64,000 nt of DNA from a virus (IMGVR_UViG_3300003310_000099:309405-373404), one strand, 5' to 3'. Numbered from the stretch's first letter, positions 182 through 60,626 are shown. Numbers and translations are program-made. Notes: a model not told the origin generated them from the letters alone.

Positions 182-1090
182 ATGTGCAGTGTTAAGGGAT
201 GCGATAAGCCATGTGCTACAAATCGCAAGATGTGCGAACAGCATTTGGAAATATATCGTAATCGCTCAAAAAAAGTAATACAACAATATATTGCAGATGG
301 AAAATGCAGATATTGTCCTCAATTAAGGTTGCCTAATTTCCAAGTATGTGAAATGCACCTTTTGAAAAATAGGGCAAAATGTAAACTTCGTGGTGAAAAG
401 CTAAGGCAAGAAGTTTTTGACCACTATGGAAAGCAATGTGTCTGTTGCGGCGAGTCAGAAATTAAGTTCTTGACCATCGACCATATCGGGAACGATGGCA
501 GCACTCATCGTAAGAAGGAAAAGGTTGGGTCGGGAGGCAGTTTCTATGCTTGGTTAAAAAGAAATAATTTTCCTTCTGGCTTTCAAGTTCTTTGCTGGAA
601 TTGCAACGCGGCCAAGGGGCTATACGGTTCTTGCCCACATAACTTAGCTGTACCGAGTAAACATATGAACAATAAAATTCTCGTCATCATGCAGGGGCAC
701 AGTGGTTCAGGTAAGTCTACCTTGGCGAAACAAATCGCCAAGGTAATTGACGCAGAAATCTTCTCCACGGATGAACTTTTCATTGTAAACGGAGTTTATA
801 AATTTGACCCTTCAAAATTAGGATTCTTCCACAAGAAGAACCTTGATAATTGCATTGCAGCAATGAAGAGGGGCGTGAATGTTGTGTGCGACAACACAAA
901 CATTCGTCAATGGGAAGCTAAAGGGTATGTGGAAGCTGCCCTTGATTTGGGTTTTGAGGTTAAATTCATTCGAGCAACTGGAAACTTTCAGAACGTGCAT
1001 GGCGTGCCGAATGACAAGGTTGAGCAGATGCGTGCGCGGCTGGAAGACTTGACGGTGGAAAGTGTCATGGCGAGCAAGAAGCCTTTTTAG
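182..1090 (+). CDS. HNH endonuclease reading frame running in-frame through the motif into the downstream kinase
   Basis: CVCCG..LTIDHIGNDG..LCWNCNAAK HNH/Zn signature; SD GGAG before ATG 182; more AT-rich than neighbouring cassettes. Confidence 0.75.
   Translation: MCSVKGCDKPCATNRKMCEQHLEIYRNRSKKVIQQYIADGKCRYCPQLRLPNFQVCEMHLLKNRAKCKLRGEKLRQEVFDHYGKQCVCCGESEIKFLTIDHIGNDGSTHRKKEKVGSGGSFYAWLKRNNFPSGFQVLCWNCNAAKGLYGSCPHNLAVPSKHMNNKILVIMQGHSGSGKSTLAKQIAKVIDAEIFSTDELFIVNGVYKFDPSKLGFFHKKNLDNCIAAMKRGVNVVCDNTNIRQWEAKGYVEAALDLGFEVKFIRATGNFQNVHGVPNDKVEQMRARLEDLTVESVMASKKPF
665..1090 (+). CDS. P-loop polynucleotide kinase-like protein (AAA_33/N4BP2-like)
   Basis: Walker A GHSGSGKST; STD, VCDNTN and NVHGVP..VEQMR motifs; own ATG 6 nt after the motif at 643. 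Confidence 0.8.
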   Translation: MNNKILVIMQGHSGSGKSTLAKQIAKVIDAEIFSTDELFIVNGVYKFDPSKLGFFHKKNLDNCIAAMKRGVNVVCDNTNIRQWEAKGYVEAALDLGFEVKFIRATGNFQNVHGVPNDKVEQMRARLEDLTVESVMASKKPF

Positions 1091-1138
1091 CTTAGCTGTA
1101 CCAAGTCAGTTGTGAGATTACTCTAACTGGAGCGACCG

Positions 1139-1477
1139 ATGAACGACCTGGAAAATGACGGGAACGAAAAAGACCTGTTGGATGAACTCATGGAAGAGAC
1201 GCCGACCAAGGGCGCGCTACTGCAATTCGATGACCTGGAAGCTGGTCAGTTGATTTGCGTCCACAGTATCAAGGGCAGCAATGATGCTGCTCCGATCATG
1301 GGGCAGGCGATGACGGTCAACGCCGTTTGCTTCCCGTTCTTCGTGGCGTCACTTTACGCGAATGGGGAAGTGCTGACGCTGGACGTGCGTTTCCTCAATC
1401 TCATGAAGTGCAACAAGGAATTCGCGGAAGCTCAGAAGAAGGCTGCAATGGCCCATAAGCGTGGGCCACAAGCCTAA
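1139..1477 (+). CDS. hypothetical protein
   Basis: Motif 1091 + SD CTGGAG + 112-aa ORF. Confidence 0.8.
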   Translation: MNDLENDGNEKDLLDELMEETPTKGALLQFDDLEAGQLICVHSIKGSNDAAPIMGQAMTVNAVCFPFFVASLYANGEVLTLDVRFLNLMKCNKEFAEAQKKAAMAHKRGPQA

Positions 1478-1591
1478 ACCACATAGGCATTTGTGTCCTG
1501 TGACCTTCATGGTCTATGGCACAATGTAAGACCTATTCTTGCTTATACCTTAGCTGTACTGAGTTGAGTGTAACTAAACTTGGGGGAGCTA

Positions 1592-1734
1592 TGGAAACGA
1601 ACTTCTGCGATTACTGTCATCAGCCGTGTGGCCAACGTCGCTTCTGCGATGAAGTGTGCTATGAGGAGTATGAGAACGAGTACGCTGCATTCATGGAATG
1701 CGTGCGGGAAGAGAATCACGACACTGACGATTGA
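1592..1734 (+). CDS. small Cys-rich (Zn-finger-like) protein
   Basis: METNFCDYCHQPCGQRRFCDEVC; SD GGAG after motif 1549. Confidence 0.7.
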
Positions 1735-1740
1735 ATCATG

Positions 1741-1872
1741 GTCCCTGTAGTGTAATGGTAGCACGGGTTTAACCGTTTTCTAATGGTGGCTATAGACGCC
1801 ATGTAGAACGGCATAGTGCGCACTATGTTGCGAGGTGAAAACCAAGTGTGGCGTCGAAACCCACCAGGGGCA
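1741..1872 (+). ncRNA. tRNA-like RNA with a 68-nt structured insertion in the anticodon loop
   Basis: Acceptor GTCCCTG/CAGGGGC+A; D arm GTGT-AATGGTA-GCAC; anticodon stem GGTTT(1766-70)/AAACC(1839-43); degenerate T arm GTGGC-GTCGAAA-CCCAC; no encoded CCA. Confidence 0.65.
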
Positions 1873-1954
1873 GCCTATACCTTAGCTGTACCAAGTCCAT
1901 TGTAATCGCCCGCGTGTTGCTCCGAGCGAATCGGAGCCTATTTGGAGAATGGCC

Positions 1955-2209
1955 ATGCGGTACGCTGATCGTTTTTGTCAGTACACGGAATCGTTCGAGA
2001 ACGGTCACGTCTACATTTTCACTGGTCCGTGTGTGGTCACGGGCAAGCCTGTTACGGTCAAAGTGCCCGCCGAGGGGCTGTTTGCCTATCGGTCTGGTGC
2101 CCACATTCAGGACGCCTTCCCCACCCTATCCTCTGATGACCGTGAATTCCTCATGAGTGGGATAAGCAAGGAAGCGTGGGATGAGACTTTCAGTGGGGAA
2201 GAGGAGTAA
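1955..2209 (+). CDS. hypothetical phage protein
   Basis: SD GGAG, motif 1881 upstream; IQDAFPTLSSDDREFLMSG. Confidence 0.75.
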   Translation: MRYADRFCQYTESFENGHVYIFTGPCVVTGKPVTVKVPAEGLFAYRSGAHIQDAFPTLSSDDREFLMSGISKEAWDETFSGEEE

Positions 2210-2254
2210 TCCTTAGCTGTACCAAGTTCGTTAACTAAACTCTGGAGAACAGCT

Positions 2255-2482
2255 ATGTCAGTGATCGAAAAGATTCAGGCTGATTTCGCGGCTGCGGGCT
2301 ATCAGTGGCAGGAACACATCTACAACGATGGTTTGCCTGGATGTAGCATCATGTTCACCAAGGACAAGAATCCTCACTATTTCGCTGAACACCCATGCGG
2401 TGATTTTGGGTGGGGCCGCTTTGAACGCTGGTGGGCATGGGCACAGGCTCATGAATGGTTGCTGAAAAGGCAAGCAGCATAG
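2255..2482 (+). CDS. hypothetical protein
   Basis: Motif 2212 + SD; stop codon abuts the next motif. Confidence 0.75.
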   Translation: MSVIEKIQADFAAAGYQWQEHIYNDGLPGCSIMFTKDKNPHYFAEHPCGDFGWGRFERWWAWAQAHEWLLKRQAA

Positions 2483-2527
2483 CTTAGCTGTACCAAGTCT
2501 TTTGTAATCACCTTTACTGGAGCAATC

Positions 2528-2971: not shown

Positions 2972-3019
2972 TAGCTTAGCTGTACTGAGTACAGTGTAAC
3001 CTTACTACGGAGAACGAAA

Positions 3020-3223: not shown

Positions 3224-3247
3224 GCGGAGGGCAGAAATCCTCCCAAG

Positions 3248-3308
3248 ACGGGGAACCATAGGGTAAGAGCGGTGCTGGCTTAGGCCAAGAACCTCTATGG
3301 TTCCCCGT
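3248..3308. other. Long intergenic stem-loop with nested hairpin
   Basis: acggggaaccatag pairs with ctatggttccccgt (14 bp perfect); the loop contains tggc-ttag-gcca. Confidence 0.7.
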
Positions 3309-3893: not shown

Positions 3894-3969
3894 GGTTCAG
3901 GGTTCGCCCACCCTGCTTAACCTTAGCTGTACTGAGTTGGTTAAATCCCAAGGCTCGGAGTGTCTGGCG

Positions 3970-4437
3970 ATGATTAACACGGCGGAAGAAATGATTCGGG
4001 TAGTTCTCGATGAAATCGGCCTTCAAAGCAGCTTAGCTGAGATTCGGAACCGAGTGGTCCAATCTCTGAACGAAATTAGAAAGAAATCGGCAACGGAAAG
4101 GATATTGCGTGAAATGGCTAAAGTTTGGGAGAGTTTTGCAAGAGGAGAACAGACATATGAGGCATGTCTGAAAAAAATCGAGCTATGGGCTGCGTTTATT
4201 TGGCAGGCCAATGACGACTCTGGGTATCTGTATGAGGGTTGCACATTAAACCCCGACCACATTTGGCATGAGTGGTGTGCCTGGATTTATGTCGCAAATC
4301 CAGAAGGGTATAGTGTTGGTTATCCGAGTCTGGCATATTGTTGCCAGATCAGGAAGAAGGTGCAGAGGGAACGTGGCGAGGAATACGACTGCCGTACCTA
4401 TGAAGGTCAACCCGACCGCAATATGATTCTGGTCTGA
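3970..4437 (+). CDS. hypothetical protein
   Basis: Start MINTAEE after motif 3922 and SD GGAG; the upstream extension in the ORF track is spurious. Confidence 0.7.
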   Translation: MINTAEEMIRVVLDEIGLQSSLAEIRNRVVQSLNEIRKKSATERILREMAKVWESFARGEQTYEACLKKIELWAAFIWQANDDSGYLYEGCTLNPDHIWHEWCAWIYVANPEGYSVGYPSLAYCCQIRKKVQRERGEEYDCRTYEGQPDRNMILV

Positions 4438-4490
4438 CCAACAGGGTTCGCCCACCCTGCTTTACAAACCTTAGCTGTACCGAGTACATC

Positions 4491-5585
4491 ATGAACACTC
4501 AAGAATATCTGCGTAACGGCAAGACGTTGGAAGACTTGACCTCTGAGTTTCACATCAACGTCACGAAGCACGATACGTTGCCGTTGGTCATCCTGAACTA
4601 CGATCAGATTGAGTCGCCTAAGACTCATCCGATTGTGCGGGAATGCCGTGGTTTGGTTCTCAACTCTGAGGACTATTCGCTGGTGGCGCGGGCTTTCGGA
4701 CGGTTTTTCAATTGGGGTGAAGTGGCGGATGAGATGCCGTTGTTCGATTGGGATTCGTGCGTAGCTCACGAAAAGGTTGACGGTTCGCTGGTTCTCATCT
4801 ACTACTTCGATGGACGTTGGCACGCGAATACGCGAGGCTCGTTCGCTGGTTGGCCGCTGTTCAACGATGAATATGTGGCGAAGTATTACGGTTTGCCGAC
4901 GACGTTCAAGTGGTCCGATGGTTTCCTCAAGGCTTTAGGTGTCAATTCCCTTGAAGAGTTGAACCTTGACAAGTCGTTGACGTATGTATGCGAGTTTTGT
5001 TCGCTCTGGAACAAGGTAGTTCGGACGTACAATGAACCGTGTATGTATATGTTGACGCGGTTTGCGGGCATGGAGGAAATCGGGCCGACGTATCATCCGA
5101 ACTTCAAGACGCTGGGGGCTTATCCGTTGAAGTCTGTACAGGATGTGCAGTCGTTTGTGATGGATCATCCCGAAGCGACTTTCGAGGGTGTAGTCGTCAA
5201 GGATGATGCGCACCGACGTTGGAAGTTGAAGAATCCGCGATACGTTGCGTTGCACCACATGAAGGGGAACGGTACGGAAATCTTCAAGCCTAAGAACTTG
5301 ATGCCGTACATCCTCAAGAATGAGGGCGACGAATTGCTGACGTACTTCCCCGAAGTCAAGGATGTGTTTGCGGAGTACAAGGGCAAGGTTGACGATGCCT
5401 ACAACGTCCTAGAAACGCTCTGGAAGGCGAATAAGGATATTCCCGTCCAAAAGGATTTTGCGTTGTCTATCGTGGGCAAGACGCCGTTTACTTCAGTTCT
5501 GTTCAATCTCCGCAAGCAAGGGGGAACGTTGCGGGATGAATGGATGAAGCACGGGGATGGCATTCTGAAAGTGTTGTTCAAGTAG
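4491..5585 (+). CDS. T4 Rnl1-like RNA ligase
   Basis: ECRGLVL, RFFNWGE, motif I HEKVDGSL, motif IV FEGVVV, motif V KLKNPRYVALHH. Confidence 0.85.
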   Translation: MNTQEYLRNGKTLEDLTSEFHINVTKHDTLPLVILNYDQIESPKTHPIVRECRGLVLNSEDYSLVARAFGRFFNWGEVADEMPLFDWDSCVAHEKVDGSLVLIYYFDGRWHANTRGSFAGWPLFNDEYVAKYYGLPTTFKWSDGFLKALGVNSLEELNLDKSLTYVCEFCSLWNKVVRTYNEPCMYMLTRFAGMEEIGPTYHPNFKTLGAYPLKSVQDVQSFVMDHPEATFEGVVVKDDAHRRWKLKNPRYVALHHMKGNGTEIFKPKNLMPYILKNEGDELLTYFPEVKDVFAEYKGKVDDAYNVLETLWKANKDIPVQKDFALSIVGKTPFTSVLFNLRKQGGTLRDEWMKHGDGILKVLFK

Positions 5586-5642
5586 TATCGAGGGCAGGGG
5601 AAAGCCAACCCTGCCCATTACCTTAGCTGTACCAAGGTGAAT

Positions 5643-5834
5643 ATGAAAACCAAAACAGTTTACGTCTGCGTCAAAGTCAAGGTGGAAATACCCGACGTGC
5701 TTCCCGAAGACGTGGAGGATGCAGTCAACCTTGTAGTCAATGAACTTGACTACACCATGTCTTACGATCAGGATGGCATCAAGATCGTGGGCACGGAAAT
5801 CATGGGCACGGTTGAGGCGGATTCAATTATCTAA
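5643..5834 (+). CDS. hypothetical protein
   Basis: ATG 5 nt after motif 5622. Confidence 0.7.
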   Translation: MKTKTVYVCVKVKVEIPDVLPEDVEDAVNLVVNELDYTMSYDQDGIKIVGTEIMGTVEADSII

Positions 5835-5907
5835 GTCAGGGTATCGCCCACCCTGCTTAACCTTAGCTGTACCAAGTCCAATGCAACCAAACTCATTGGA
5901 GTCAAGT

Positions 5908-6120
5908 ATGTTTAACTTGATCGCAATCGCTGCCAGGTCACTTGGCCACCCGACCACTGGTGACTTCGCTTTCGCTCTATGGGAAATGTGCAGCGGCAAC
6001 CGCCTGGACGTTCGGGACGCCAAGGCGTTGTATGAGGCGTGCGGTTATCTTCCTTTCAACGGGTATCCACTAACAAGGGCAACAAATGGGTTGGCAACGG
6101 AAACAGAACGACAAGCGTAA
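5908..6120 (+). CDS. hypothetical protein
   Basis: Motif 5862 + SD GGAG; start MFNLIA. Confidence 0.6.
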   Translation: MFNLIAIAARSLGHPTTGDFAFALWEMCSGNRLDVRDAKALYEACGYLPFNGYPLTRATNGLATETERQA

Positions 6121-6232
6121 GCTGAACGGGCAAAAGGATTGGACGCGAGAACAAAAGGAACAGGTCAAGCGGTTTCTCAAACAGTATCCGCAAGGAGCGC
6201 AAGATGAACGACAGCAACGAAAAGCTGGATGA
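6086..6232 (+). CDS. small basic hypothetical protein (48 aa)
   Basis: Manual translation MGWQRKQNDKRK...; below the ORF-track cutoff. Confidence 0.45.
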   Translation: MGWQRKQNDKRKLNGQKDWTREQKEQVKRFLKQYPQGAQDERQQRKAG

Positions 6233-6263
6233 TCTTTGGATTGACATTGGCGGCGAAGGCTAA
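6204..6263 (+). CDS. 19-aa peptide MNDSNEKLDDLWIDIGGEG
   Basis: Strong SD AAGGAG; stop codon 2 nt before motif 6266. Confidence 0.55.
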   Translation: MNDSNEKLDDLWIDIGGEG

Positions 6264-6419
6264 ATCTTAGCTGTACCAAGTAGAATGTAACTCAAGTGAA
6301 CCTTAATGAAAGGAAGCTATATTGCGTATAGTTTAGCCCAGAAGTAGCTCATTAGTTGGAAGTGGGACTAATGAGTGTGGGGCCTTACCACTACTAGCTT
6401 TCTCTTACCTGGAGCAACC

Positions 6420-6596
6420 ATGTTGAAGATTTACACTCAGGACCACGGTTACAGTGGCATGATTGTTGCAGTCGCCAAGAATGAGGCGGATGCAAGGAAG
6501 ATCATGAAAGCTGCCGCCAACTACTATGAACATACGCCAGTTGAGGAACATGAAATCAAGGAAGGTTTCATGGAATACAATATGGGTGACGGCTAA
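6420..6596 (+). CDS. hypothetical protein
   Basis: SD CTGGAG; long structured leader after motif 6266. Confidence 0.7.
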   Translation: MLKIYTQDHGYSGMIVAVAKNEADARKIMKAAANYYEHTPVEEHEIKEGFMEYNMGDG

Positions 6597-6641
6597 ACCT
6601 TAGCTGTACCTAGTTAATTGTAACCTAACTGGAGCCAACAC

Positions 6642-6845
6642 ATGGCGAAGCTGACGAATGCGGAACGGGAACAGTGGATCAACAACGATGAGGGTCTGTA
6701 TGACTGGAAACGGTCGTCAAGGCTCTCAATGCGGGAGTTCATCAAGCAGAACAAGGAAGAGATTGACCAGTGCATCAACAACGTGCTGGGCAACAAACAG
6801 CCTGCCCATTACCTCAAGTATGGGCGCTACCCTACATGGCGGTAG
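6642..6845 (+). CDS. hypothetical phage protein
   Basis: Motif 6599 + SD; WINNDEGLYDW. Confidence 0.75.
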   Translation: MAKLTNAEREQWINNDEGLYDWKRSSRLSMREFIKQNKEEIDQCINNVLGNKQPAHYLKYGRYPTWR

Positions 6846-6874
6846 CATCAATCCCAACGCTTGGAGTTCATCCC

Positions 6875-7066
6875 GTGGAAAACGAATTCGATCTTTACAT
6901 CATCATGGCACACGCTGAACATTTGCGGCGTCAGTTGCTGAACAACGAAAAGCCCGATGCGTGGCGTATCAAGCGGCTGAGTGAATTGGCTCAAAACATC
7001 GAACGCGAGTACGATGAGCAATACCAAAAGTGGTGCGATGAGCAAGAGCTTAGCTGTACCGAGTGA
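6875..7066 (+). CDS. hypothetical protein; C-terminus reads through the motif (LSCTE)
   Basis: SD GGAG + GTG. Confidence 0.6.
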   Translation: MENEFDLYIIMAHAEHLRRQLLNNEKPDAWRIKRLSELAQNIEREYDEQYQKWCDEQELSCTE

Positions 7067-7093
7067 GTTGTGATAACTCAAGCGGAGAGTACC

Positions 7094-7318
7094 ATGAAGC
7101 TGGACCCGACTGGTTGCATCGACACGAACAACGGCAAGGGTTACTTTCAGGTCCGCGACAATTGGGAAGGCAACGGCTATCGCCTCTACTTCGGGGGCGA
7201 TAGGTATGTCTCTCAGGTGGACGGTGAAATCAATGGCAAGGTTTACCGTACCATTAAGGCGGCAAAAGCTGATTGCTTCCGTCGCTTCAAGCTAGAAGCG
7301 AAGCGTGTCTATGACTGA
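7094..7318 (+). CDS. hypothetical protein
   Basis: Motif 7049 + SD. Confidence 0.7.
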   Translation: MKLDPTGCIDTNNGKGYFQVRDNWEGNGYRLYFGGDRYVSQVDGEINGKVYRTIKAAKADCFRRFKLEAKRVYD

Positions 7319-7514
7319 TGCCTTCAAGTCTATAGATAAACTCTGTAGACTTTATGGCACTAACTTCTACATTCAAGTTTCCGAGTGTTCCATTGGCATC
7401 TACAACGTGCCAGATGATGACTTCCATATCTTCACTTGGAGCGAAAATCGCTATGTTCTGACCAACATACAAGACTATATCCCCAATTGGCTATCCAACA
7501 AAGTGGGGATATAG
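7311..7514 (+). CDS. hypothetical protein
   Basis: Overlaps the previous stop; ends at motif 7515. Confidence 0.55.
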   Translation: MTDAFKSIDKLCRLYGTNFYIQVSECSIGIYNVPDDDFHIFTWSENRYVLTNIQDYIPNWLSNKVGI

Positions 7515-7563
7515 CCTAGCTGTACCAAGTCCATTGTAATTCAAATCACTTTGGAGAATGGTC

Positions 7564-7815
7564 ATGACTGACAGCGTTGCCAAGATTGCCCGTGTCAACC
7601 CGACCTTGGCCAACAAGATCAACGCACAATTCACCTTCCTCACCAATGAGGACATTGCCGAAGTCGAGAAAATCGACCGCATGATGATGGTGCTGGTGCG
7701 TTGCGGCAATGGCCGATTCGTCTGCCCCGTTCAGAACGCACTACACTTCTGCAACATCATCGACAAGGAAGGCACCGACTACGTTCGGGATATGAGCTTC
7801 CCAAGTAATGGGTAG
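7564..7815 (+). CDS. hypothetical protein
   Basis: Motif 7515 + SD. Confidence 0.75.
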   Translation: MTDSVAKIARVNPTLANKINAQFTFLTNEDIAEVEKIDRMMMVLVRCGNGRFVCPVQNALHFCNIIDKEGTDYVRDMSFPSNG

Positions 7816-7886
7816 AACAGGGTTCGCCCACCCTGCTTAAACCTTAGCTGTACTGAGTGTAATGTAACTCATTCAGGAGGACTTCA

Positions 7887-8102
7887 ATGGCTCAGTGCTG
7901 CGGCGAAGAAATGTACAAGGACTGCAACGGCCAACCGCGTTGTGAACAGTGCCAACCGCCGTGTCCGTGTTGCTATGATGGCGGCATGGATGACCAAGAG
8001 GAAGAAGAAGAATTTTGGCTGACGTGTCTGGATGAGATGGATGCACGATACCGTAAAGGAACGAAAAATGGAAACTCCGCTCCAGAAGCTGCCATTCGAT
8101 GA
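7887..8102 (+). CDS. Cys-rich acidic small protein
   Basis: SD AGGAGG; CCG..C..CEQC..CPCC. Confidence 0.65.
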   Translation: MAQCCGEEMYKDCNGQPRCEQCQPPCPCCYDGGMDDQEEEEEFWLTCLDEMDARYRKGTKNGNSAPEAAIR

Positions 8103-8265
8103 AGCCCTGTACCAGACATTCAATTTCGTTAGCAAAATGTCTGAGTCAATGGATGCTACGTTTACTGATGATGAACGGGCAGCTGTCAAGATCACTTCAC
8201 GCATACTCGCCCAAATGGTTGTGGAAATGCACGACGATACCTTAGCTGTACCTAGTAAGTTGTAA
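8068..8265 (+). CDS. hypothetical protein; C-terminus reads through the motif (LAVPSKL)
   Basis: SD AAGGA. Confidence 0.55.
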   Translation: METPLQKLPFDEALYQTFNFVSKMSESMDATFTDDERAAVKITSRILAQMVVEMHDDTLAVPSKL

Positions 8266-8288
8266 CCCAACCCCAAACGGAGAGTGCC

Positions 8289-8420
8289 ATGTACGAAGTC
8301 ATCCACAAGGGTCGCAGCTTGTTCCGCAACGTCAGCATCGAGCGTTGCCGTCAGTTCATCGCACGGCACAATCTCAGTGGGGCTATCATTCAGCCCCTCA
8401 GTCAAATGTTGGCTGCTTAA
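8289..8420 (+). CDS. small hypothetical protein (43 aa)
   Basis: Motif 8241 + SD GGAG; MYEVIHKGRSLF. Confidence 0.6.
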   Translation: MYEVIHKGRSLFRNVSIERCRQFIARHNLSGAIIQPLSQMLAA

Positions 8421-8466
8421 CTCCAGGGTTCGCCCCCCCTGCGCCACATCTATTAAGGAGCCAAAC

Positions 8467-8649
8467 ATGTATGAGGGTGAAGCCGATTACGTTCCCTACT
8501 TCTGGGAACGCAAGACACCAGTGCAGACCGTTGGCAAGGTGCGTATCTACCTTGTCCAAGACGAAGCTGCACAATTCGATGATCTGATGGGACGAAGCCA
8601 ACTCAACTTGGCCGAATGTTCCAACGGCAAGGTCATGGAAATAGCTTAG
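8467..8649 (+). CDS. hypothetical protein
   Basis: SD AAGGAG; MYEGEADYVPYFW. Confidence 0.65.
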   Translation: MYEGEADYVPYFWERKTPVQTVGKVRIYLVQDEAAQFDDLMGRSQLNLAECSNGKVMEIA

Positions 8650-8689
8650 CTGTACCTAGTTAATTGTAACCTTACTCTGGAGCAAACAC

Positions 8690-8881
8690 ATGCAGGTACA
8701 TCTTTACGGCAAGCCTCTGGTTGAGGGGAAGACTGTGACGCTGGACCATACGGTTCAGAAGTTCGAGATTCTGATTCGCTCCATGAGTGGGGTTCATGCA
8801 CAACGCTTGAAAGACCTCATTCAGAAGCAGTTTGAGGTCGTCAAGATCAAGGAAGTGGACAGCATTTCTTACGTCATCTAA
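8690..8881 (+). CDS. hypothetical protein
   Basis: Motif 8645 + SD. Confidence 0.7.
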   Translation: MQVHLYGKPLVEGKTVTLDHTVQKFEILIRSMSGVHAQRLKDLIQKQFEVVKIKEVDSISYVI

Positions 8882-8925
8882 GGGGCAGGGTCGCCCACCC
8901 TGCTTAAACCTTACGGAGTCCTACC

Positions 8926-9516
8926 ATGAAGATCATTGCTGCCTACAACAAGTACACCAAGGAAGCCTTGACCAACGAACAGCGGGAAGCTGACATGGAG
9001 GCACTACTTGAGGCACATGAAGAAGAAGTGAAAACCAACCCCACATGGAAGTATTTCGGGGGGCATCATCGAGCTAGGCGACCACGAATACCAAGTGTGC
9101 TAAACCTTAGCTGTACTGAGTACAGTGTAACCCCAACACTTGGAGCAAACATGGACAAGCATTTGCAAGAGCGTATCGACCGTTTCGTGCAGGCCGCTGA
9201 TCGGTGCGTGGAAACCTACTGGACGAACAGTGGCTACACCCACATGTCACCGCCCAAACATCGCGCCAACGAGATTAGCGACAAATGGGTGCGAGTTGTG
9301 ACGGTCGAAGAACGCAATGGCGTTTGGCAGGATTCGAGCGTCTACGCCTTCATCTGCCTCAAGGACTATTCGACCAAGGCTTTAGGTCAACTCAAGAAGG
9401 GCGACATTCACAAACCAGCGACCTACAAGGCCGCTGCGAAGCACGCAAGGGGCAACGTGTTCGACAACGATTTTGAGAAGTGCCTGACGCCGTGGGGTAT
9501 CGTCTACTTGAAGTAA
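8926..9516 (+). CDS. Two cassette ORFs joined in frame through motif 9106 (second start ATG 9151)
   Basis: Internal motif + SD GGAG + ATG 9151; GDIHKPATYKAAAKHARGNV. Confidence 0.7.
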   Translation: MKIIAAYNKYTKEALTNEQREADMEALLEAHEEEVKTNPTWKYFGGHHRARRPRIPSVLNLSCTEYSVTPTLGANMDKHLQERIDRFVQAADRCVETYWTNSGYTHMSPPKHRANEISDKWVRVVTVEERNGVWQDSSVYAFICLKDYSTKALGQLKKGDIHKPATYKAAAKHARGNVFDNDFEKCLTPWGIVYLK

Positions 9517-9565
9517 GGGGCAGGGTCGCCCACCCTGCTTAAACCTTAGCTGTACCGAGTAGAGT

Positions 9566-9844
9566 ATGAACAAACAAGAATACGCTGAGTATGAGGCACG
9601 GGTAGCCGAGTTCTTCAGCCACGGTTTGGCTAACTTGTCAACCAAGTCGGATTGCCATGAACCGTTCTTTTCGTGGCGTCCGTGTCAGTGCTGCGGGACA
9701 CACTTAGGCGGCAATCGCTATGAGTGTGACGGGTACAATGAGAAGACAAAGGAAGTCGAAGAGTACGACAACATTTGCGAAGACTGCGTATATTACGCAG
9801 AATACGGGCAGCTTGACGATACCACTATGGCCAATCTGGAGTAA
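9566..9844 (+). CDS. Cys-rich hypothetical phage protein
   Basis: FSWRPCQCCG..GGNR, CEDC; ATG 5 nt after motif 9545. Confidence 0.75.
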   Translation: MNKQEYAEYEARVAEFFSHGLANLSTKSDCHEPFFSWRPCQCCGTHLGGNRYECDGYNEKTKEVEEYDNICEDCVYYAEYGQLDDTTMANLE

Positions 9845-9846
9845 CC

Positions 9847-10020
9847 ATGAAACTCAGCGAAGCTATCCACAAGCTGCAATATACGCTCAATCTCCACGGC
9901 GATAAGGAAATGAAACAGTGGAAGTATAGCGACGGCAAGGTACAGTCTGTGCCCGTCAAGCTGGAAGTAGCCGAAAACCCCGAAGATGATACCATCGGCG
10001 TCATCCTCAGTGCCGAATAA
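9847..10020 (+). CDS. small hypothetical protein (57 aa)
   Basis: Manual translation MKLSEAIHKLQ; stop abuts motif 10022. Confidence 0.6.
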   Translation: MKLSEAIHKLQYTLNLHGDKEMKQWKYSDGKVQSVPVKLEVAENPEDDTIGVILSAE

Positions 10021-10042
10021 CCTTAGCTGTACCGAGTAAAGC

Positions 10043-10222
10043 ATGAACACATCACTTGAAAAGAAGATCAATCATAAGCGGCGTTTGCGTGTGCTGCGTG
10101 AGAGACTTCGCAAGCTGCTGCTCCAATACTACGTTCATTCGGACGCGGGCAAGCTGGAGAAGCATGTTCGTGTGATGAACAAGCTCCGCAAGGCAATCAG
10201 AAAGCTTAGCTGTACCAAGTAG
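10043..10222 (+). CDS. small basic protein (59 aa); reads through the motif (LSCTK)
   Basis: ATG 5 nt after motif 10022. Confidence 0.6.
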   Translation: MNTSLEKKINHKRRLRVLRERLRKLLLQYYVHSDAGKLEKHVRVMNKLRKAIRKLSCTK

Positions 10223-10250
10223 GTTGTAATCACCCTTACTGGAGTCAGCC

Positions 10251-10508
10251 ATGCAAGACCACGTTCTCGACAACTGCCTCATTCATCAGAAAGATGCCAT
10301 TATCGACCTCATCGACAGTGGCAAGCACGATGAGGCGATAACGCTGCTCAAGTTCGTCAAGGAACTGTGGGAAGCCGCGAGCTACGACTACAAGTACAGA
10401 GAACTCAAGGAGCGCGGCGTCAGAGCGGCGGATAACCGAGAGAACTGCCGCCACTGGAAGCACGTCCAGTCACTCACGGCCATTCAGAACAAGTATCGTT
10501 CACTGTAA
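10251..10508 (+). CDS. hypothetical protein
   Basis: Motif 10205 + CCTTACTGGAG. Confidence 0.75.
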   Translation: MQDHVLDNCLIHQKDAIIDLIDSGKHDEAITLLKFVKELWEAASYDYKYRELKERGVRAADNRENCRHWKHVQSLTAIQNKYRSL

Positions 10509-10596
10509 GGGGTGGATAGGGGAGAAAGCCAATCCCCTTATCCTGCTGATACCTTAGCTGTACCTAGTGCAGTATAACCCTTACTGGAGAAGACAC

Positions 10597-10773
10597 ATGA
10601 AGGTTTGCCAGAAGTGCGGGGATGAGATTGGCACCAAGGACGGGGACAACTATTGTGGCAAGTGCCACAAGAAGAAGGATGCGGCCAAGAGACGGAAGGA
10701 ACGGGAAGACGTGTTGCGTAGTTGTGGGTTGGTGAAGGTGCGTGGGGCAATGGGTGGAACCTATTGGGAATAA
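10597..10773 (+). CDS. small Zn-finger protein
   Basis: CQKC..CGKC; GLVKVRGAMGGTYWE. Confidence 0.75.
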   Translation: MKVCQKCGDEIGTKDGDNYCGKCHKKKDAAKRRKEREDVLRSCGLVKVRGAMGGTYWE

Positions 10774-10850
10774 CCCAATAGGTCGCCCAACCCAGCATAG
10801 CTTAGCTGTACCAAGTGCATTGTGACAGTCAAACCCCTGGAGTCAGTGCA

Positions 10851-11207
10851 ATGCGGTATTTCATCAAGTTGGCCAAGAAGAACGACCGTGGCGAACCCGT
10901 CAACACGGGTTGGTATGAAGAGGTGGATGAGTACACGTTCAAGAACGCCAAGTATGCGCTCAACGATTGCGGCGATGGTCCGCGTTACACGAACGACGCT
11001 GTGATGGTGGACGGCGATGAGGTCACTGCACGGTTGGTCGCAGCCCCAATACGGGACTTGGCCATTCTGACGCGATACTTTCAGGCGTCGGAACCGAACA
11101 AGGTGGAAGGCGGTTTCGTCCGCGAGCAACCGAGTATCAAGTTCAACATTCGCGGCAAGATCAAGCTGCGTGAGAAGGACGGTAGCATCTGGAGCAAAGC
11201 AGCGTAA
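10851..11207 (+). CDS. hypothetical protein
   Basis: Motif 10801 + SD. Confidence 0.75.
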   Translation: MRYFIKLAKKNDRGEPVNTGWYEEVDEYTFKNAKYALNDCGDGPRYTNDAVMVDGDEVTARLVAAPIRDLAILTRYFQASEPNKVEGGFVREQPSIKFNIRGKIKLREKDGSIWSKAA

Positions 11208-11256
11208 ACCAACAGGGTCGCCCACCCTGCTTTACCTTAGCTGTACGGAGTGGAGT

Positions 11257-11433
11257 ATGAGCTACCTTCGTCACATGCGGACTACTGCTGAATGCCGCGC
11301 TGAAAGCGGGGCCGAAGAACAAGGCGTCAAGGTGCGTGCGAAGCGTAATCGCCGCAATATCCCCAACGCTTGGGACGACGTGCCTCATGCCCGTCGCCAC
11401 AAGTGCGACCGCCACAAGGATCATCGTCGCTAA
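11257..11433 (+). CDS. small Arg-rich protein
   Basis: ATG 5 nt after motif 11236; RAKRNRRNIPNAWDD. Confidence 0.7.
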   Translation: MSYLRHMRTTAECRAESGAEEQGVKVRAKRNRRNIPNAWDDVPHARRHKCDRHKDHRR

Positions 11434-11562
11434 CGGGCGGGTGTACGGTCTGGCGGCGGGGGCCGTCAGCGTAAGGTAGGCAAACCTACACCGTACACCT
11501 GCCCAAAAGTACAAAGCTTAGCTGTACCTAGTATAGTGTAATCACCCTTACTGGAGACAGCC

Positions 11563-11739
11563 ATGCACGCTACCACCGAACGCAAGAAGTCCAACAAGAA
11601 CGATTTCACCGTCACCACGACGGTCAAGGATCGCGCCATTCACATCCAGACCATCATTATGATGGCAGCAAGGTCCAACCGCGAACCCGATAAGCGCCGC
11701 AAGCTGCGGGAACGCGACGACCGCCGCATGAGGGACTGA
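11563..11739 (+). CDS. small basic protein (58 aa)
   Basis: Motif 11517 + CCTTACTGGAG. Confidence 0.6.
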   Translation: MHATTERKKSNKNDFTVTTTVKDRAIHIQTIIMMAARSNREPDKRRKLRERDDRRMRD

Positions 11740-11860
11740 TGAGCGAACAAGAAATTGCCGACTGGCTCGCAGAACTACGCGAGTCAGTCGGCACCAGACC
11801 CCAAGGATAGCTTAGCTGTACCAAGTAGGTTGTAACCAACACCCTTACTGGAGAGTACAC

Positions 11861-12244
11861 ATGACCGCTACCGTGTCCCTCAGCTGCGAACGCTACTTCC
11901 CCGAAACCAACAAGCGGGGCAAGAATGGCAAGCTGCAACGCATTTGCATCGACGTGCGCAAGATGCAGATTCGCGGCGACTTCATCACCACGACGGGCTT
12001 TGAGGTCAACTACCTCAAGCGGGGCGGCGAATTCCGCTTCTACGTCAAGAGCATCGTCAAGCCTGTCAAGTCGATATGGCAGGAATTGAACACCCGTCCG
12101 CAACCCATTATCCCGAAGTGGGAGCGGGAAGGCAACTACAGTCGGGATGAATTCGTGGCGTGGCTCAAGGCACGCCGTATCCAAAACGCCGAAAGCCTTG
12201 TCATCGCTCTGATGACGATGCCCCCCGAAAACTTGGCAGCGTAG
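11861..12244 (+). CDS. hypothetical protein
   Basis: Motif 11811 + CCTTACTGGAG. Confidence 0.75.
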   Translation: MTATVSLSCERYFPETNKRGKNGKLQRICIDVRKMQIRGDFITTTGFEVNYLKRGGEFRFYVKSIVKPVKSIWQELNTRPQPIIPKWEREGNYSRDEFVAWLKARRIQNAESLVIALMTMPPENLAA

Positions 12245-12323
12245 CCAACAGGGTCGCCCACCCTGCATAGCCCATAGCTTAGCTGTACCAAGTAGAGTGT
12301 AACCAACACTCAGGAGTCAGCAC

Positions 12324-12464
12324 ATGCGGGCCAAACATCGTAACGACCACAATCATGGCAAGAGCGGTTGGGTCGGTGGCAATCCACGTTATGGCCGTAA
12401 ACGTGGCTTCCGCAAGTCCGATCAACCCAAAGACAAAGCCGCCTGGAAACGCGAAGTCAAGTAA
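12324..12464 (+). CDS. small basic protein (46 aa)
   Basis: Motif 12278 + SD AGGAG. Confidence 0.6.
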   Translation: MRAKHRNDHNHGKSGWVGGNPRYGRKRGFRKSDQPKDKAAWKREVK

Positions 12465-12470
12465 GGGGTG

Positions 12471-12500
12471 AGACAGGGGACTGCCAACCCTGTCTTTTTT
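12471..12500 (+). terminator. intrinsic terminator
   Basis: agacaggg..ccctgtct stem followed by a T tract. Confidence 0.7.
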
Positions 12501-12505
12501 CGTTT

Positions 12506-12746
12506 CAACCTAAACTCAGTACAGCTAAGCTTTTACACCTCCATACTGTACAAAGTGCTTCACCTCTCAAATGCGATTAAATGCGTTTTAAGCCACTCTG
12601 AGGTCAAGGTGACTCTCGACCCACTTAACCCATTTGAATCGCTTCTAGGGCCATCCTAGCGTCAGCAAATGGCATCCGCGAATCCAATCCCGAATGTTCA
12701 AAGACCGCACCGAATCCTACCCTAATTAAGCTTAGCTGTACCGAGT
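12506..12746. repeat. Non-coding direct repeat copy A, bounded by outward-facing motif copies
   Basis: Colinear with 14835-15076; shared blocks include aatgcgattaaatgcgttttaagccactct, aggtcaaggtgactctcgaccca, cttctagggccatcctag, gtcagcaaatggcat and aatcctaccctaattaag. Confidence 0.9.
12514..12529 (-). promoter_or_regulatory. Inverted copy of the 16-bp cassette motif
   Basis: actcagtacagctaag is the reverse complement of CTTAGCTGTACTGAGT. Confidence 0.9.
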
Positions 12747-12784
12747 ATATTGTTCTAAACCACCCCATACTGGAGAACACGAAC

Positions 12785-12985
12785 ATGCGTTGCGAAGATG
12801 CCCCGTGCTGCGGTTGCTGCCCGTCCTACTACGATCACGACGCCTACGATGACATGGAGCAGTACGACGACCGCGACGACGCACGGTACGACGACGTTGA
12901 GGAAGACCACATCCTTGAGCAGCAGGAGCTTGAGGACTTCGAGCAGGCCGACGAATACTTCGGCCACTACAACGATTGGGAGTAG
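12785..12985 (+). CDS. small acidic protein with CEDAPCCGCC
   Basis: Motif 12731 + SD. Confidence 0.75.
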   Translation: MRCEDAPCCGCCPSYYDHDAYDDMEQYDDRDDARYDDVEEDHILEQQELEDFEQADEYFGHYNDWE

Positions 12986-13069
12986 GGGGAAGGGGTCGCC
13001 CACCCCTTTATAATAAGTTTACCTTAGCTGTACCTAGTCCAGTGTAACGCTTCTTACTGGAGTGCAGCA

Positions 13070-13555: not shown

Positions 13556-13617
13556 TGCCCTAATTAGGATAGCTTAGCTGTACCTAGTACAGTGTTCCTC
13601 AACCCCTGGAGACGCAC

Positions 13618-13791
13618 ATGACTCTACACTGCATCCTCTGCGGCGAAGAAGCGGCCTTGACGCTGAATCTGCAAGATGGGGAAACCGTGTCTTGTCCCGA
13701 ATGCGGGAACGACTTCACGACCGCCGACGTGAAGGAACGCATCGAAGAGTGGACGCAGGCGTTAGCCTGGATCAACAACATGCCCAAGTAA
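13618..13791 (+). CDS. Zn-ribbon protein (57 aa)
   Basis: CILCG..CPECG; motif 13573 + SD. Confidence 0.7.
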   Translation: MTLHCILCGEEAALTLNLQDGETVSCPECGNDFTTADVKERIEEWTQALAWINNMPK

Positions 13792-13870
13792 TGGGCATGG
13801 TCGCCCTAATTAGGATAGCTTAGCTGTACCTAGTAGAGTGTAATCACCACCACCTTACTGGAGAGTACAC

Positions 13871-14236
13871 ATGGGCGTCCGTCTCTACCCGAACACGACC
13901 AACGCGGCGAAGCTGGAGAAGTTGGCTGGTGTCCCCGAAGGGACGCACAAGCGGATGGAAGACATGGCAAAGCGGCACGCGGAGGAACGCGCTGCGGCCA
14001 CCAACTGGAACGAGTACGAAGACGGCTACCGCCAATGGAAGGAACGGGACAACGACGGTCCTATTGGCGACTTGGACGCCTTCCTTACCTTCGGGTGGGG
14101 CAAGTTCCGCCCAATCGACGGCATCGGGGAGGATTACGCGGGCAACGAGAGCGACCCACAACGGGCCGCGAAGCTGCTCCGATACAACGGTATCGGGGTG
14201 GACGTGAGCCTAACGGAAGGCGTCCACTGGTGCTAG
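13871..14236 (+). CDS. hypothetical protein
   Basis: Motif 13819 + CCTTACTGGAG. Confidence 0.75.
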   Translation: MGVRLYPNTTNAAKLEKLAGVPEGTHKRMEDMAKRHAEERAAATNWNEYEDGYRQWKERDNDGPIGDLDAFLTFGWGKFRPIDGIGEDYAGNESDPQRAAKLLRYNGIGVDVSLTEGVHWC

Positions 14237-14241
14237 TGGAC

Positions 14242-14267
14242 AGGGGGCGAAAGCCCCCTTTTCTTTT
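14242..14267 (+). terminator. intrinsic terminator
   Basis: agggggc-gaaa-gccccct followed by a T-rich tail. Confidence 0.75.
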
Positions 14268-14329
14268 ATACAACCATTACCTTAGCTGTACCTAGTGGAG
14301 TGTCCCCCCTTCACTACTGGAGCCGCACG

Positions 14330-14473
14330 ATGACGCTGAAACAGCAGCTGGAAAAGTTCGATGCGCAGGCCGACACCTACGCCAAGGCCACGAAGGAGCC
14401 TTGGGAGTGCGAGAGCTACGCTGAATGGGTGGCTTCGCTGCCCGAAGAAGAACAACCTTATGAAAATGAGTAA
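14330..14473 (+). CDS. small acidic protein (47 aa)
   Basis: Motif 14281 + SD. Confidence 0.6.
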   Translation: MTLKQQLEKFDAQADTYAKATKEPWECESYAEWVASLPEEEQPYENE

Positions 14474-14555
14474 CACGGGCATCGCCCGCCCTAATTAGGA
14501 TAGCTTAGCTGTACCTAGTAAGTTGTTCCAACCAACCCCATACGGAGACACGCAC

Positions 14556-14801
14556 ATGGCCACCGTCATCGCTTCCAACCTCACCGCCGTTGTCGTCTAC
14601 CGCGTCGAGAAGACGCTGGGGCCGAATGGCCGCGTCAAGCAGCTGACCGACGTGACGATCAAGGCGGGGCCGCTCACGGTCGCCACCAAGACGCTCTGGG
14701 GCCGCTACAGTCAGAGCAAGGCTCTGGTGGAGTTCAAGCGGAACCCCAAGGGCTGGACGGTGCTGGATGCCGCCGCGTCCAAGTTGCCGATTGCGGCCTA
14801 A
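14556..14801 (+). CDS. hypothetical protein
   Basis: Motif 14504 + SD. Confidence 0.75.
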   Translation: MATVIASNLTAVVVYRVEKTLGPNGRVKQLTDVTIKAGPLTVATKTLWGRYSQSKALVEFKRNPKGWTVLDAAASKLPIAA

Positions 14802-14805
14802 CGAG

Positions 14806-14830
14806 AAGGGGGCTTCGGCCCCCTTTTTTT
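14806..14830 (+). terminator. intrinsic terminator
   Basis: aagggggc-ttcg-gcccccttttttt. Confidence 0.85.
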
Positions 14831-14834
14831 ATTC

Positions 14835-15076
14835 CAACCTAAACTCGGTACAGCTAAGTTTTATGTAAAGATTACTGTACATAAGTGCTTCATGGCTAGA
14901 ATGCGATTAAATGCGTTTTAAGCCACTCTAAGGTCAAGGTGACTCTCGACCCATTTGAGCAATCTAAACGCCTTCTAGGGCCATCCTAGTGTCAGCAAAT
15001 GGCATTCGCAAAGGCAAACCCAAGAGGCAAACCGACTGGCCCAATCCTACCCTAATTAAGCTTAGCTGTACCTAGT
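14835..15076. repeat. Non-coding direct repeat copy B, bounded by outward-facing motif copies
   Basis: Same blocks and nearly identical length to copy A (motif-to-motif span 234 vs 233 bp). Confidence 0.9.
14843..14858 (-). promoter_or_regulatory. Inverted copy of the 16-bp cassette motif
   Basis: actcggtacagctaag is the reverse complement of CTTAGCTGTACCGAGT. Confidence 0.9.
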
Positions 15077-15114
15077 AAGTTGTAAGATTCACCCCCCTTA
15101 CTGGAGAGACGGCC

Positions 15115-15438
15115 ATGCACACCAAGGAAAGCATTGCGGCGCTGTTGGCCACGAACGACAAGGCCGTGTATCGCGCTCTGGTGGTGCTGTTCGAGCGGCA
15201 GACCGCCGACGAACGCGACTCGGAGCAGACGAATCACCTCAACGGGATGGGCTTCAACGGGCGGGACGCCAAGTTCGGCACCTCGTTGGCCAAACAGGTC
15301 ATCCGTTGGCAGGACGGGTTGACCAACTACCGAACGCCGTTGACGATGGCGCAGACGAGCGCCGCACGCAAGATGCTCCGCAAGTACGCGGGACAGTTGG
15401 CCAAAGTCGCCAACGAGAAGGCCGCAGTCGGGGTCTAA
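15115..15438 (+). CDS. hypothetical phage protein
   Basis: Motif 15061 + SD; RQTADE..NGMGFNGRDA..KYAGQL. Confidence 0.8.
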   Translation: MHTKESIAALLATNDKAVYRALVVLFERQTADERDSEQTNHLNGMGFNGRDAKFGTSLAKQVIRWQDGLTNYRTPLTMAQTSAARKMLRKYAGQLAKVANEKAAVGV

Positions 15439-15442
15439 GGGG

Positions 15443-15470
15443 AAGGGGGCTTCGGCCCCTTTTTCCTTTT
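15443..15470 (+). terminator. intrinsic terminator
   Basis: ggggc-ttcg-gcccc followed by a T tract. Confidence 0.8.
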
Positions 15471-15563
15471 ATAAGGATTAGCTTAGCTGTACCTAGTACA
15501 GTGTAACGACGACTGGTCTTCATCATATAGTGGCCCTTCCCTCACCCTGTTCTGGAGTCGGCA

Positions 15564-15722
15564 ATGAAGTACGTCTATGGTGACTTGGTGCTGAGTGCGG
15601 TGCATGGCTGCTACGTCCGTGTCAAGGAACAACAGGGCTGCTACTTGGTTGTCATGGATCGCAATACGCTGGTCGAGTTGCCCGACCACATCCACATATC
15701 GCAAGCCACGTTCGCCAAGTAG
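15564..15722 (+). CDS. small hypothetical protein (52 aa)
   Basis: SD CTGGAG after motif 15482. Confidence 0.55.
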   Translation: MKYVYGDLVLSAVHGCYVRVKEQQGCYLVVMDRNTLVELPDHIHISQATFAK

Positions 15723-15727
15723 CATGA

Positions 15728-15766
15728 GATTAGCACTAAGCTATTAGGTATAGCTTAGTGCTAATC
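15728..15766. repeat. Perfect 17-bp inverted repeat at the right end of the cassette array
   Basis: gattagcactaagctat-taggt-atagcttagtgctaatc. Confidence 0.85.
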
Positions 15767-16059
15767 ATATTGAATAGCTTAGCTGTACCAAGTAAGGTGT
15801 AACATAATTAAGAATGGAGAAATTAATTTCAAAAAAGTTTGAAAAAAAGAAAATAAAAAGGAGGGGGCTACCCGCCATACGAGCCTTCTTATACATGAAG
15901 ACAAGAAAAAATTCCACAGGTAGGTTTTCAAATTTCAAATTATAGAAAAAAATTCCCAATTTCGTGTTTCAAAAATTGGGAATTTCAAAATTTTCATTTT
16001 CCGTTATTAGCTCAAAACTTTACCAAAATCCGATTTCCAAAAATAGCATTGCTGGATTT

Positions 16060-60617: not shown

Positions 60618-60626
60618 GAGTCAATT

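Follow-up and report, generated by a model that had tools for sequence, protein, structure and literature searches.

Phages T7, T3 and SP6 have single-subunit polymerases whose promoters are long and nearly invariant, with few differing positions between related phages, and the T4 late promoter, TATAAATA, is read with gp55. Single-element promoters read by phage sigma factors are known from phiEco32 (gp36, tAATGTAtA) and phage 7-11, where the element is 8-12 nt long and 6-10 copies are listed (PMC4331800). The T4-type phages carry promoter-early stem-loops (PeSLs), i.e. hairpins combined with host sigma-70 early promoters (Arbiol et al. 2010, PMC2839356; Comeau et al. 2014, PMC4122927). Here, we analyse the last 64 kb (64,000 nucleotides, hereafter the window) of a viral record, IMGVR_UViG_3300003310_000099:309405-373404. 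The whole record, G000, has 373,404 bp and is rated 98% complete. The first 16 kb of the window hold an array of 39 small-gene cassettes, each headed by the same motif. In our reading, to which we give a probability of roughly 70% with all its parts taken together, the motif is a promoter specific to the phage lineage, each unit is its own transcription unit with a predicted start at a fixed distance, the promoter is read with a phage sigma-like protein, and the cassettes are shuffled in the manner of PeSLs.

Like PeSLs, the modules of the array consist of a hairpin plus a promoter, repeated between small, mostly ORFan genes in what would be the hyperplastic region of the genome, and relatives differ by indels, replacements and permutations with junctions at the modules. 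T4-like content is also found in G000: rIIA, an Rnl1-type ligase and a kinase. Unlike the PeSLs, the element is a non-sigma-70 sequence of ~20 nt with a spelling private to the phage lineage. The copies are packed far more densely (39 in 15 kb and over 100 in each genome), leaderless mRNAs are predicted for many units, and the array has a codon composition of its own. The combination of phage-specific promoters with PeSL-like modular arrays, in a clade of uncultured huge phages, is what is new here.

The sequence CTTAGCTGTACYNAGT is present in 38 exact copies in the window, 36 on the plus strand and two on the minus strand, and in none of 100 dinucleotide-preserving shuffles of the window. When one mismatch is tolerated, three further plus-strand copies are found (5622, 7515 and 11236), giving 39 forward copies between 643 and 15793 with a spacing of 183-1152 bp (median 401), see Table 1. 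The same number and coordinates were given in the original prediction, which described co-oriented copies of a 16-bp motif. The recurrence is confirmed, and the co-orientation holds for the 39 forward copies and fails for the two reversed ones. According to the alignment of all copies, the conserved block is longer, ~20 nt (aTAg-CTTAGCTGTACC-n-AGT), with information at -4 to +15 only and none upstream of -5. The other 48 kb of the window contain no full copy, as had been predicted, and three partial matches with two mismatches, at 51141, 54526 and 54919. The last two (54526-54541 and 54919-54934, plus strand) have GCTGTACCTAGT in common and lie within a 1877-aa open reading frame (ORF, 51449-57082). 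This ORF is accompanied by long antisense ORFs, suggesting a repetitive or biased composition, and the two partial motifs could be internal promoters or chance matches.

The set of copies extends beyond the window. In the whole record the 11-mer core of the motif is found 110 times in forward and twice in reverse orientation. The copies are scattered before 196 kb, reach 13-24 per 10 kb at 290-325 kb and drop to zero in the final 48 kb. The array in the window is the dense end of a genome-wide regulon and no self-contained island. Outside the array, the motif heads tRNA genes at 43692, 44112 and 124467, with the tRNA 5' ends at about +24 to +28, and the rIIA gene at 219940 (PHROG E 2e-112). 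The virion module forms the final stretch (baseplate hub, a P2 gpI-like protein, PKD-domain proteins and a giant intein-carrying protein) and has no copies; a k-mer search for a second, late promoter motif 5' of the virion genes gave nothing clear. The GC content is 0.47-0.54 in the array, compared with ~0.38-0.40 outside it and ~0.38 in the rest of the window.

The units follow the plan originally described: motif, leader, short ORF and, in about half of them, a hairpin. Approximately 30 of the 39 copies are followed by a GGAG-type Shine-Dalgarno sequence and a start codon at +38 to +61, and in this class the leader opens with (T)GTGTAAC ahead of the GGAG. Six units in the window have an ATG at +21 or +22 from the first C of the motif and no Shine-Dalgarno sequence; genome-wide, 26-27 copies in G000 have an ATG at exactly +21 and none. 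The leaders of the remaining copies (e.g. 15482, 15778) are longer or irregular. The 46 nt 5' of the motifs fold at -12 kcal/mol or lower in 49% of cases, against 28% of the controls (p 0.002). One conserved hairpin, GGGT(t)CGCCCACCC, has nine copies in G000, all on the plus strand and all within the array, and five in the relative G002, introduced below. Most hairpins before motifs lack a U run, and T-run terminators are located directly 5' of some motifs (three in the window). Sigma-70-like promoters number 7 in the array, when 14.1 +/- 4.0 are expected from shuffles. The GC content of the array ORFs by codon position is 0.56/0.38/0.72, and because of this we regard these small ORFs as real coding sequence. 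The array contains no paralogues among its cassettes, no known RNA families (Rfam, E <= 0.1) and no tRNAs found by ARAGORN.

Elsewhere in IMG/VR the exact motif gives singleton chance matches only and no other virus contig uses it, and the first 16 kb have no near match among deposited phages. Because the nucleotide and motif searches gave no relatives, these were found through proteins. W01 (LR756511.1), a 595-kb uncultured phage, has an rIIA protein with 54% identity to that of G000. G002, a 390-kb record whose orthologues have a median identity of 71%, came from a search with the RNA ligase, as did several other contigs, and a search with one cassette protein gave two more arrays. For host identification, 185,579 representative prokaryote genomes were searched for relatives and none was found. 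In total, six relatives have equivalent arrays of co-oriented tiny genes, i.e. seven genomes or contigs together with G000. There are six distinct spellings of the motif (G000 and L126 share one), each near-invariant within its genome. The TGTAC core is common to all and the flanks differ, Table 1.

At +20/+21, 15 nt after the core T, a pyrimidine-purine step is found in 88, 76, 65, 93, 92, 96 and 100% of the copies in the seven lineages, compared with 0-29% in the neighbouring registers. The commonest ATG offset is exactly the +21 purine, with 27 copies in G000 and 25 in G002, about a quarter of the copies in each. Such a pyrimidine(-1)/purine(+1) step, kept at one distance from a conserved block, is what one expects of a start site. 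If +21 is taken as +1, the conserved block covers -25 to -6, the TG of TGTAC is at -15/-14, and the hexamer at -12 to -7 is ACCAAT, ACTAAT, ACTAAA or ACCNAG. In most lineages this hexamer matches the sigma-70 consensus at -9 to -7, and it has A and C at -12/-11. If the predicted start is right, the extended -10 register would fit all seven lineages, with a non-canonical hexamer. No -35 element is conserved, in agreement with the original prediction. From the predicted start we infer that the motif has the geometry of an extended -10 promoter with altered specificity and no -35. We rejected a sigma-54 promoter, as no GG or GC is conserved across the lineages at -24/-12. A bipartite promoter, with the motif as the -35 and T(G/A)TAAC at +20 to +25 as the -10, was also rejected, as was a MotA-box-like activator site at -30; for both the start would fall 3' of the conserved +21 start codons.

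The predicted start of transcription is the purine at +21, counted from the first C of the motif. Where this purine is the A of an ATG, the mRNA is predicted to be leaderless (six units in the window, 27 in the genome). These candidates have the ATG at the invariant step, no Shine-Dalgarno sequence in the preceding 5 nt and conserved N-termini. The orthologues of the RNA ligase are 74% and 55% identical, and since the protein is conserved from residue 4 on in the three genomes, the ATG at +21 is a real start and is used; in the G002 orthologue the ATG is likewise at +21. The transcripts of the other units would start with (G)UGUAAC, and their leaders, 17-40 nt long, would contain a GGAG Shine-Dalgarno sequence. 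About half of the units end in a hairpin, a few of these hairpins being canonical intrinsic terminators, and where a T-run terminator ends a unit the next one needs its own start. The idea of a phage-specific promoter, put forward in the original prediction, gains support from the position of the motif, which is strand-locked to genes, lies 5' of ORFs, tRNA genes and rIIA, directly follows intrinsic terminators and is absent from the virion module, as well as from the step that is fixed in seven genomes.

Three sigma-like ORFs with a Sigma70_r2 domain could be identified, of 159 aa (regions 2 and 4), 275 aa (regions 2 and 4) and 110 aa (region 2 only). All three match phrog_351 and are conserved in G002 and W01. 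Upstream of the 159-aa gene there is TTGACA-17-TATTAT, and because this is a near-consensus host-type promoter the protein could be made first by the host polymerase. The reader of the motif would be the host core RNA polymerase redirected by one of these three proteins, which we consider the most likely arrangement. The most economical reading appears to be a sigma cascade as in phiEco32 and 7-11. The likeness to these phages lies in the phage-own sigma-like proteins, in the single block in the -10 region without a -35, and in the sigma gene with a host-type promoter. In contrast to them, ~20 nt are conserved in ~110 copies, the spelling is lineage-specific, and the sigma-like proteins of G000 are candidate readers only. 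Of the gene types that had been proposed for a search of the rest of the genome, sigma-like genes are present, and neither an RNA polymerase, at the sequence level, nor a tyrosine or serine recombinase was found.

The motif was originally taken as a possible early promoter. Middle or delayed-early transcription is at least as likely, because the motif is unlikely to be read by host sigma-70 and hence needs a phage factor. In two places in G000, and likewise in W01 (Table 1), the motif is followed within ~20 nt by a host-type promoter, TTTACA/TTGACA-17-TG-n-TA..AT, with a conserved TTTTCGTGGTA at the end of the spacer. The canonical host-type promoters found elsewhere in G000 indicate a host with an ordinary sigma-70 consensus, so that the motif forms a separate class.

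To describe the variation of the array we compared the cassettes between relatives. G002 has homologues for 19 of the 39 cassettes in the window, ~10 of them collinear and ~8 displaced, and none for the other 20; W01 has homologues for eight. The nucleotide homology between G000 and G002 is confined within cassettes, and the nucleotide coverage of G000 by G002 is 0.03-0.22 at 230-330 kb, against ~0.1-1.0 (mostly 0.3-0.8) elsewhere. L126 and G000 share blocks that are 70-77% identical and open exactly at the motif on either side; the order is permuted and the terminal cassette is kept, Table 1. One cassette protein that is absent from G002 and W01 has 71 metagenomic homologues, one of them on the L121 contig, which shows that cassettes are shared patchily. 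The shufflable library of the original prediction agrees with these results, as relatives differ in the content and order of their cassettes, the motif marks the exact start of homology, and a fixed order was not seen. The repeated promoter, leader and hairpin modules would supply the homology for gain, loss and permutation of cassettes, as with the PeSLs of T4. Non-orthologous leaders are slightly more alike within a genome than across genomes (p 0.006) and orthologous leaders are not clearly distinct; concerted evolution of the leaders was rejected, as the signal is weak.

The original prediction also proposed an integron-like site. The motif would then primarily be a site-specific recombination site for gene capture, and its promoter-like placement would be secondary. 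Integrons share with the array the tandem, co-oriented and unrelated single-ORF cassettes bounded by a repeat, but here the repeat precedes each gene and keeps a fixed distance to the start codon, and there is no attC-type structured site: the motif has neither an internal inverted repeat nor an attC-like imperfect palindrome. Each cassette would have its own promoter in place of a single common Pc. Integron-like capture would account for the variation in content and order among relatives, for the junctions at the repeat and for the patchy distribution of cassette proteins over related phages; however, the spelling differs between genomes that still share cassettes, and over 300 kb the motif is also found 5' of conserved core genes and tRNAs. 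Searches for tyrosine and serine recombinases (PF00589, PF00239) gave no match in the 373-kb genome, whereas the control genomes gave matches. We find an integron-like origin very improbable, and the array matches modular shuffling of the T4 PeSL type.

Several observations weigh against the reading as sigma-dependent promoters in a shuffled array. With 11-16 nt unchanged in ~110 copies, the block looks more like a target of single-subunit phage polymerases than like one of sigma factors. A sigma-like protein that has region 4 should as a rule also use a -35 element, and no such element is conserved; sigma-70 reads other bases than A and C at -12/-11. The start at +21 is predicted from the geometry. 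Upstream stop codons, which had been described as often abutting or overlapping the motif, do so in only ~7 of the 39 units. Where they lie inside it, the motif is also transcribed, and a role at the RNA level is possible. Finally, the intergenic DNA consists almost wholly of motif, leader and hairpin, so junctions at the motif are nearly unavoidable and are no proof of recombination within it.

In line with the first of these points, the promoter could instead be read by a phage polymerase or specificity factor of a kind beyond sequence recognition. If such a factor is packaged and injected, as may be the case, the array would be truly early. As with the promoters of T7, T3 and SP6, the block is highly invariant in each genome and changes in concert between lineages, and the spellings behave as a family of orthogonal promoters. 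In the T7 group, however, the block runs through the start, while that of G000 ends 6 nt before the predicted one, and no single-subunit polymerase gene is detectable in G000. Searches of the three genomes with T7 gp1 and N4 gp15, gp16 and gp50 (phmmer, tblastn) gave nothing below E 0.1. At the sequence level, and with regard to two-barrel polymerases of the phiKZ, crAss or P23-45 types, PF00562 and PF00623 (Rpb1/Rpb2 domains) are absent from G000, PF00940 gave no candidate in G000 (the control set for this family is uninformative), and the regular expressions for polymerase motifs have no match. Most large proteins of the phage lack a Pfam or PHROG match, and cryptic two-barrel polymerases recognisable only by DxDxD have a precedent in phage P23-45 (bioRxiv 10.1101/2022.12.01.518664), but the sole DxDxD conserved across the three genomes is in a 609-aa protein of the baseplate module with a P2 gpI tail domain. 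Both the start at a pyrimidine-purine step and the position of the TG (-15/-14) point to a bacterial holoenzyme. Overall, an unrecognised polymerase or factor of this kind seems unlikely to us. A 1070-aa ORF considered as a polymerase candidate is instead a beta-propeller/beta-helix fibre-like protein.

At the RNA level, the motif could be a cleavage or recognition site that frees monocistronic mRNAs, some with a 5'-terminal AUG, or a site for a translational regulator. The ORFs ending inside the motif provide a transcript of it, and the fixed +20/+21 step could equally be a cleavage site. The motif has no secondary structure, though, and where it follows T-run terminators little read-through RNA would remain for processing. 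The hairpins, most of them without a U run, could be processing or stability elements, but the host-type promoters able to feed a long precursor are under-represented in the array. Two anti-motif copies are found on the plus strand inside a structured repeat; on their own strand, no transcription unit lies 5' of these reversed copies. For tRNA genes, which the motif precedes as well, such a site is not needed, and the motif stands in tandem with sigma-70 promoters. With these points on the two sides we hold a primary role in RNA to be quite improbable and retain the promoter.

The GC content at third codon positions (GC3) of G000 is 0.36 in core genes, 0.45-0.48 in motif-headed genes elsewhere and 0.60-0.72 in the array (G000 300-326 kb). 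It is highest (0.72) at the distal end of the array, where the cassettes are least conserved. The arrays are GC-rich in every relative, and relative to their own genome in G002, W01, L121, L124 and L127. Possible explanations for the high GC3 are a foreign origin with amelioration or an adaptation of early genes to host tRNAs. A wider proposal combines several of these features. In it, the TGTAC elements would be read by an undescribed phage specificity system, either an unrecognised polymerase or a factor that gives the host polymerase a T7-like stringency, and would at the same time be the exchange points of a promoter-based gene-capture array, which draws GC3-rich cassettes from a pool of the huge-phage clade and is renewed mainly distally, an integrase-free analogue of the integron. 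We give this proposal as a whole a small chance.

Huge phages are known almost only from metagenomes, and the programming of transcription is largely obscure for lineages without a polymerase of their own. The clade described here is a testable system, with more than 100 copies of a private promoter per genome, six diverged spellings and a start predicted at single-nucleotide resolution. Many leaderless mRNAs can be expected of this system, and the three sigma-like genes are the sole candidate readers. If the pairing of sigma and motif is true, the lineage variants would be ready orthogonal pairs of promoter and factor for the bacterial polymerase. The array carries the PeSL idea, regulatory repeats as a substrate for shuffling, to promoters other than host-type ones and to phages that are not T4-like. 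A question posed by the GC3 gradient is where the cassettes come from, or why their codon use is unlike the rest of the phage.

Table 1. Motif copies, their spellings in the relatives, and other features of the array. Positions are those of the window unless a genome is named.
Feature	Position	Strand	Remarks
Array of 39 motif-headed single-gene units	643..15793	+	Pattern scan; distal, densest part of the genome-wide set
Forward copy starts (1)	643, 1091, 1549, 1881, 2212, 2483, 2975, 3315, 3539, 3922, 4470, 5622, 5862	+	
Forward copy starts (2)	6266, 6599, 7049, 7515, 7843, 8241, 8645, 9106, 9545, 10022, 10205, 10553, 10801	+	
Forward copy starts (3)	11236, 11517, 11811, 12278, 12731, 13023, 13573, 13819, 14281, 14504, 15061, 15482, 15778	+	
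One-mismatch motif copy ending AAGG	5622..5637	+	3' end of the motif turns Shine-Dalgarno-like; ATG at +21
One-mismatch motif copies	7515-7530, 11236-11251	+	
Reversed motif copy	12514..12529	-	Back to back with forward copy 12731; faces the plus-strand terminator of the preceding unit
Reversed motif copy	14843..14858	-	Arranged as 12514..12529
Motif spelling, G000			ATAg CTTAGC TGTAC CnAGT; 110 forward, 2 reverse
Motif spelling, L126			tAAT CTTAGC TGTAC CTAGT; 26 in 10 kb
Motif spelling, G002			ATAg CTTAGT TGTAC CAAtt; 101 forward, 6 reverse, density gradient as in G000
Motif spelling, L127			aATc GCAGC TGTAC CAATt; 35-40 in 16 kb
Motif spelling, W01			TaAAGC TGTAC taAa; 55 in 19 kb and ~60 on the other strand
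Motif spelling, L121			AATT GaGGT TGTAC TAATt; 48 in 21 kb
Motif spelling, L124			AATT GCAAT TGTAC CAaat; 49 in 21 kb
Tandem motif and host-type promoter	G000 245403-245470, 252651-252720		
Tandem motif and host-type promoter	W01 ~437771 and 203061 (- strand)		
Block starts, L126 to window	2407-10553, 2899-11517, 4028-13023, 5482-8645, 6098-11811, 7839-15778		
Conserved hairpin GGGT(t)CGCCCACCC	Starts 3900, 4444, 5839, 7820, 8888, 9523, 11215, 12251, 12992 (within 3900..13010)	+	5-15 nt 5' of a motif
Intrinsic-terminator-like hairpin with T run	14242..14259	+	22 nt before motif 14281
Similar terminator-like sites	15439-15465, ~12470-12500	+	The first before motif 15482
T4 Rnl1-type RNA ligase, predicted leaderless unit	4470..5585	+	Motif, 5 nt, ATG 4491; PF09511, E 1e-12
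AAA_33 P-loop kinase, polynucleotide-kinase-like, short-leader unit	643..1090	+	ATG at +22; PF13671, E 2e-13
Cys-rich, HNH-like ORF	182..640	+	Sequence reading only, weak Pfam hit; stop abuts the first motif of the window
tRNA-like RNA	1738..1876	+	Fold with 7-bp acceptor stem, D arm, T arm and ~70-nt insert
Non-coding repeat, copy A, ~215 nt	12530..12730	-	Between divergent motifs; blastn
Non-coding repeat, copy B, ~215 nt	14859..15060	-	blastn
Terminal cassette closing the array	15778..15960	+	GC falls to 0.38 afterwards

The host-takeover role given to the cassettes in the original prediction is putative: the AAA_33 kinase and the T4 Rnl1-type RNA ligase are the only cassettes of the array that could be assigned using Pfam. 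Orthologous cassettes of the kinase are present in G002 and W01. The HNH-like ORF and the kinase form a read-through ORF, of which W01 matches only the kinase part, and there is no HNH-like counterpart beside the kinase of W01. At the distal boundary of the array there is a T5orf172/GIY-YIG-type ORF, 16060-16875 on the minus strand. Homing-endonuclease-like genes (this one and the ORF at 182-640, plus strand) flank or enter the array. The terminal cassette has 75-78% nucleotide identity to sequences at the array end of G002 and L126.

Some parts of the array may encode RNA. The tRNA-like RNA was missed by both ARAGORN and Rfam, and a sequence similar to it follows a motif in the G002 array (position 9318 of L095). 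The ~215-nt repeat is present only in G000, in two copies that are 81% identical, each ending in a reversed motif. Its minus strand folds at -65 kcal/mol (z -3.4), while the plus strand has a z of -0.2. The repeat may be a small structured RNA or a region that controls divergent promoters. A motif-headed cassette at G000 305226-305417, some 4.2 kb ahead of the window, contains no ORF; with 88% identity to L126 4582-4689, it forms the best-conserved block that the two arrays share.

In the virion module, a 1052-aa ORF (34710-37868, plus strand) contains an intein with a LAGLIDADG endonuclease (PF03161, PF14890), and its orthologue in W01, with 719 aa, is presumably intein-free. Other genes in G000 encode a WGR + PARP-catalytic-domain protein (159616-161205), a nicotinate phosphoribosyltransferase (60605-61981), a ClpX-like AAA+ protein (155108-156412) and a protein-kinase-like protein (69242-70918). 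These four proteins are 60-73% identical in W01.

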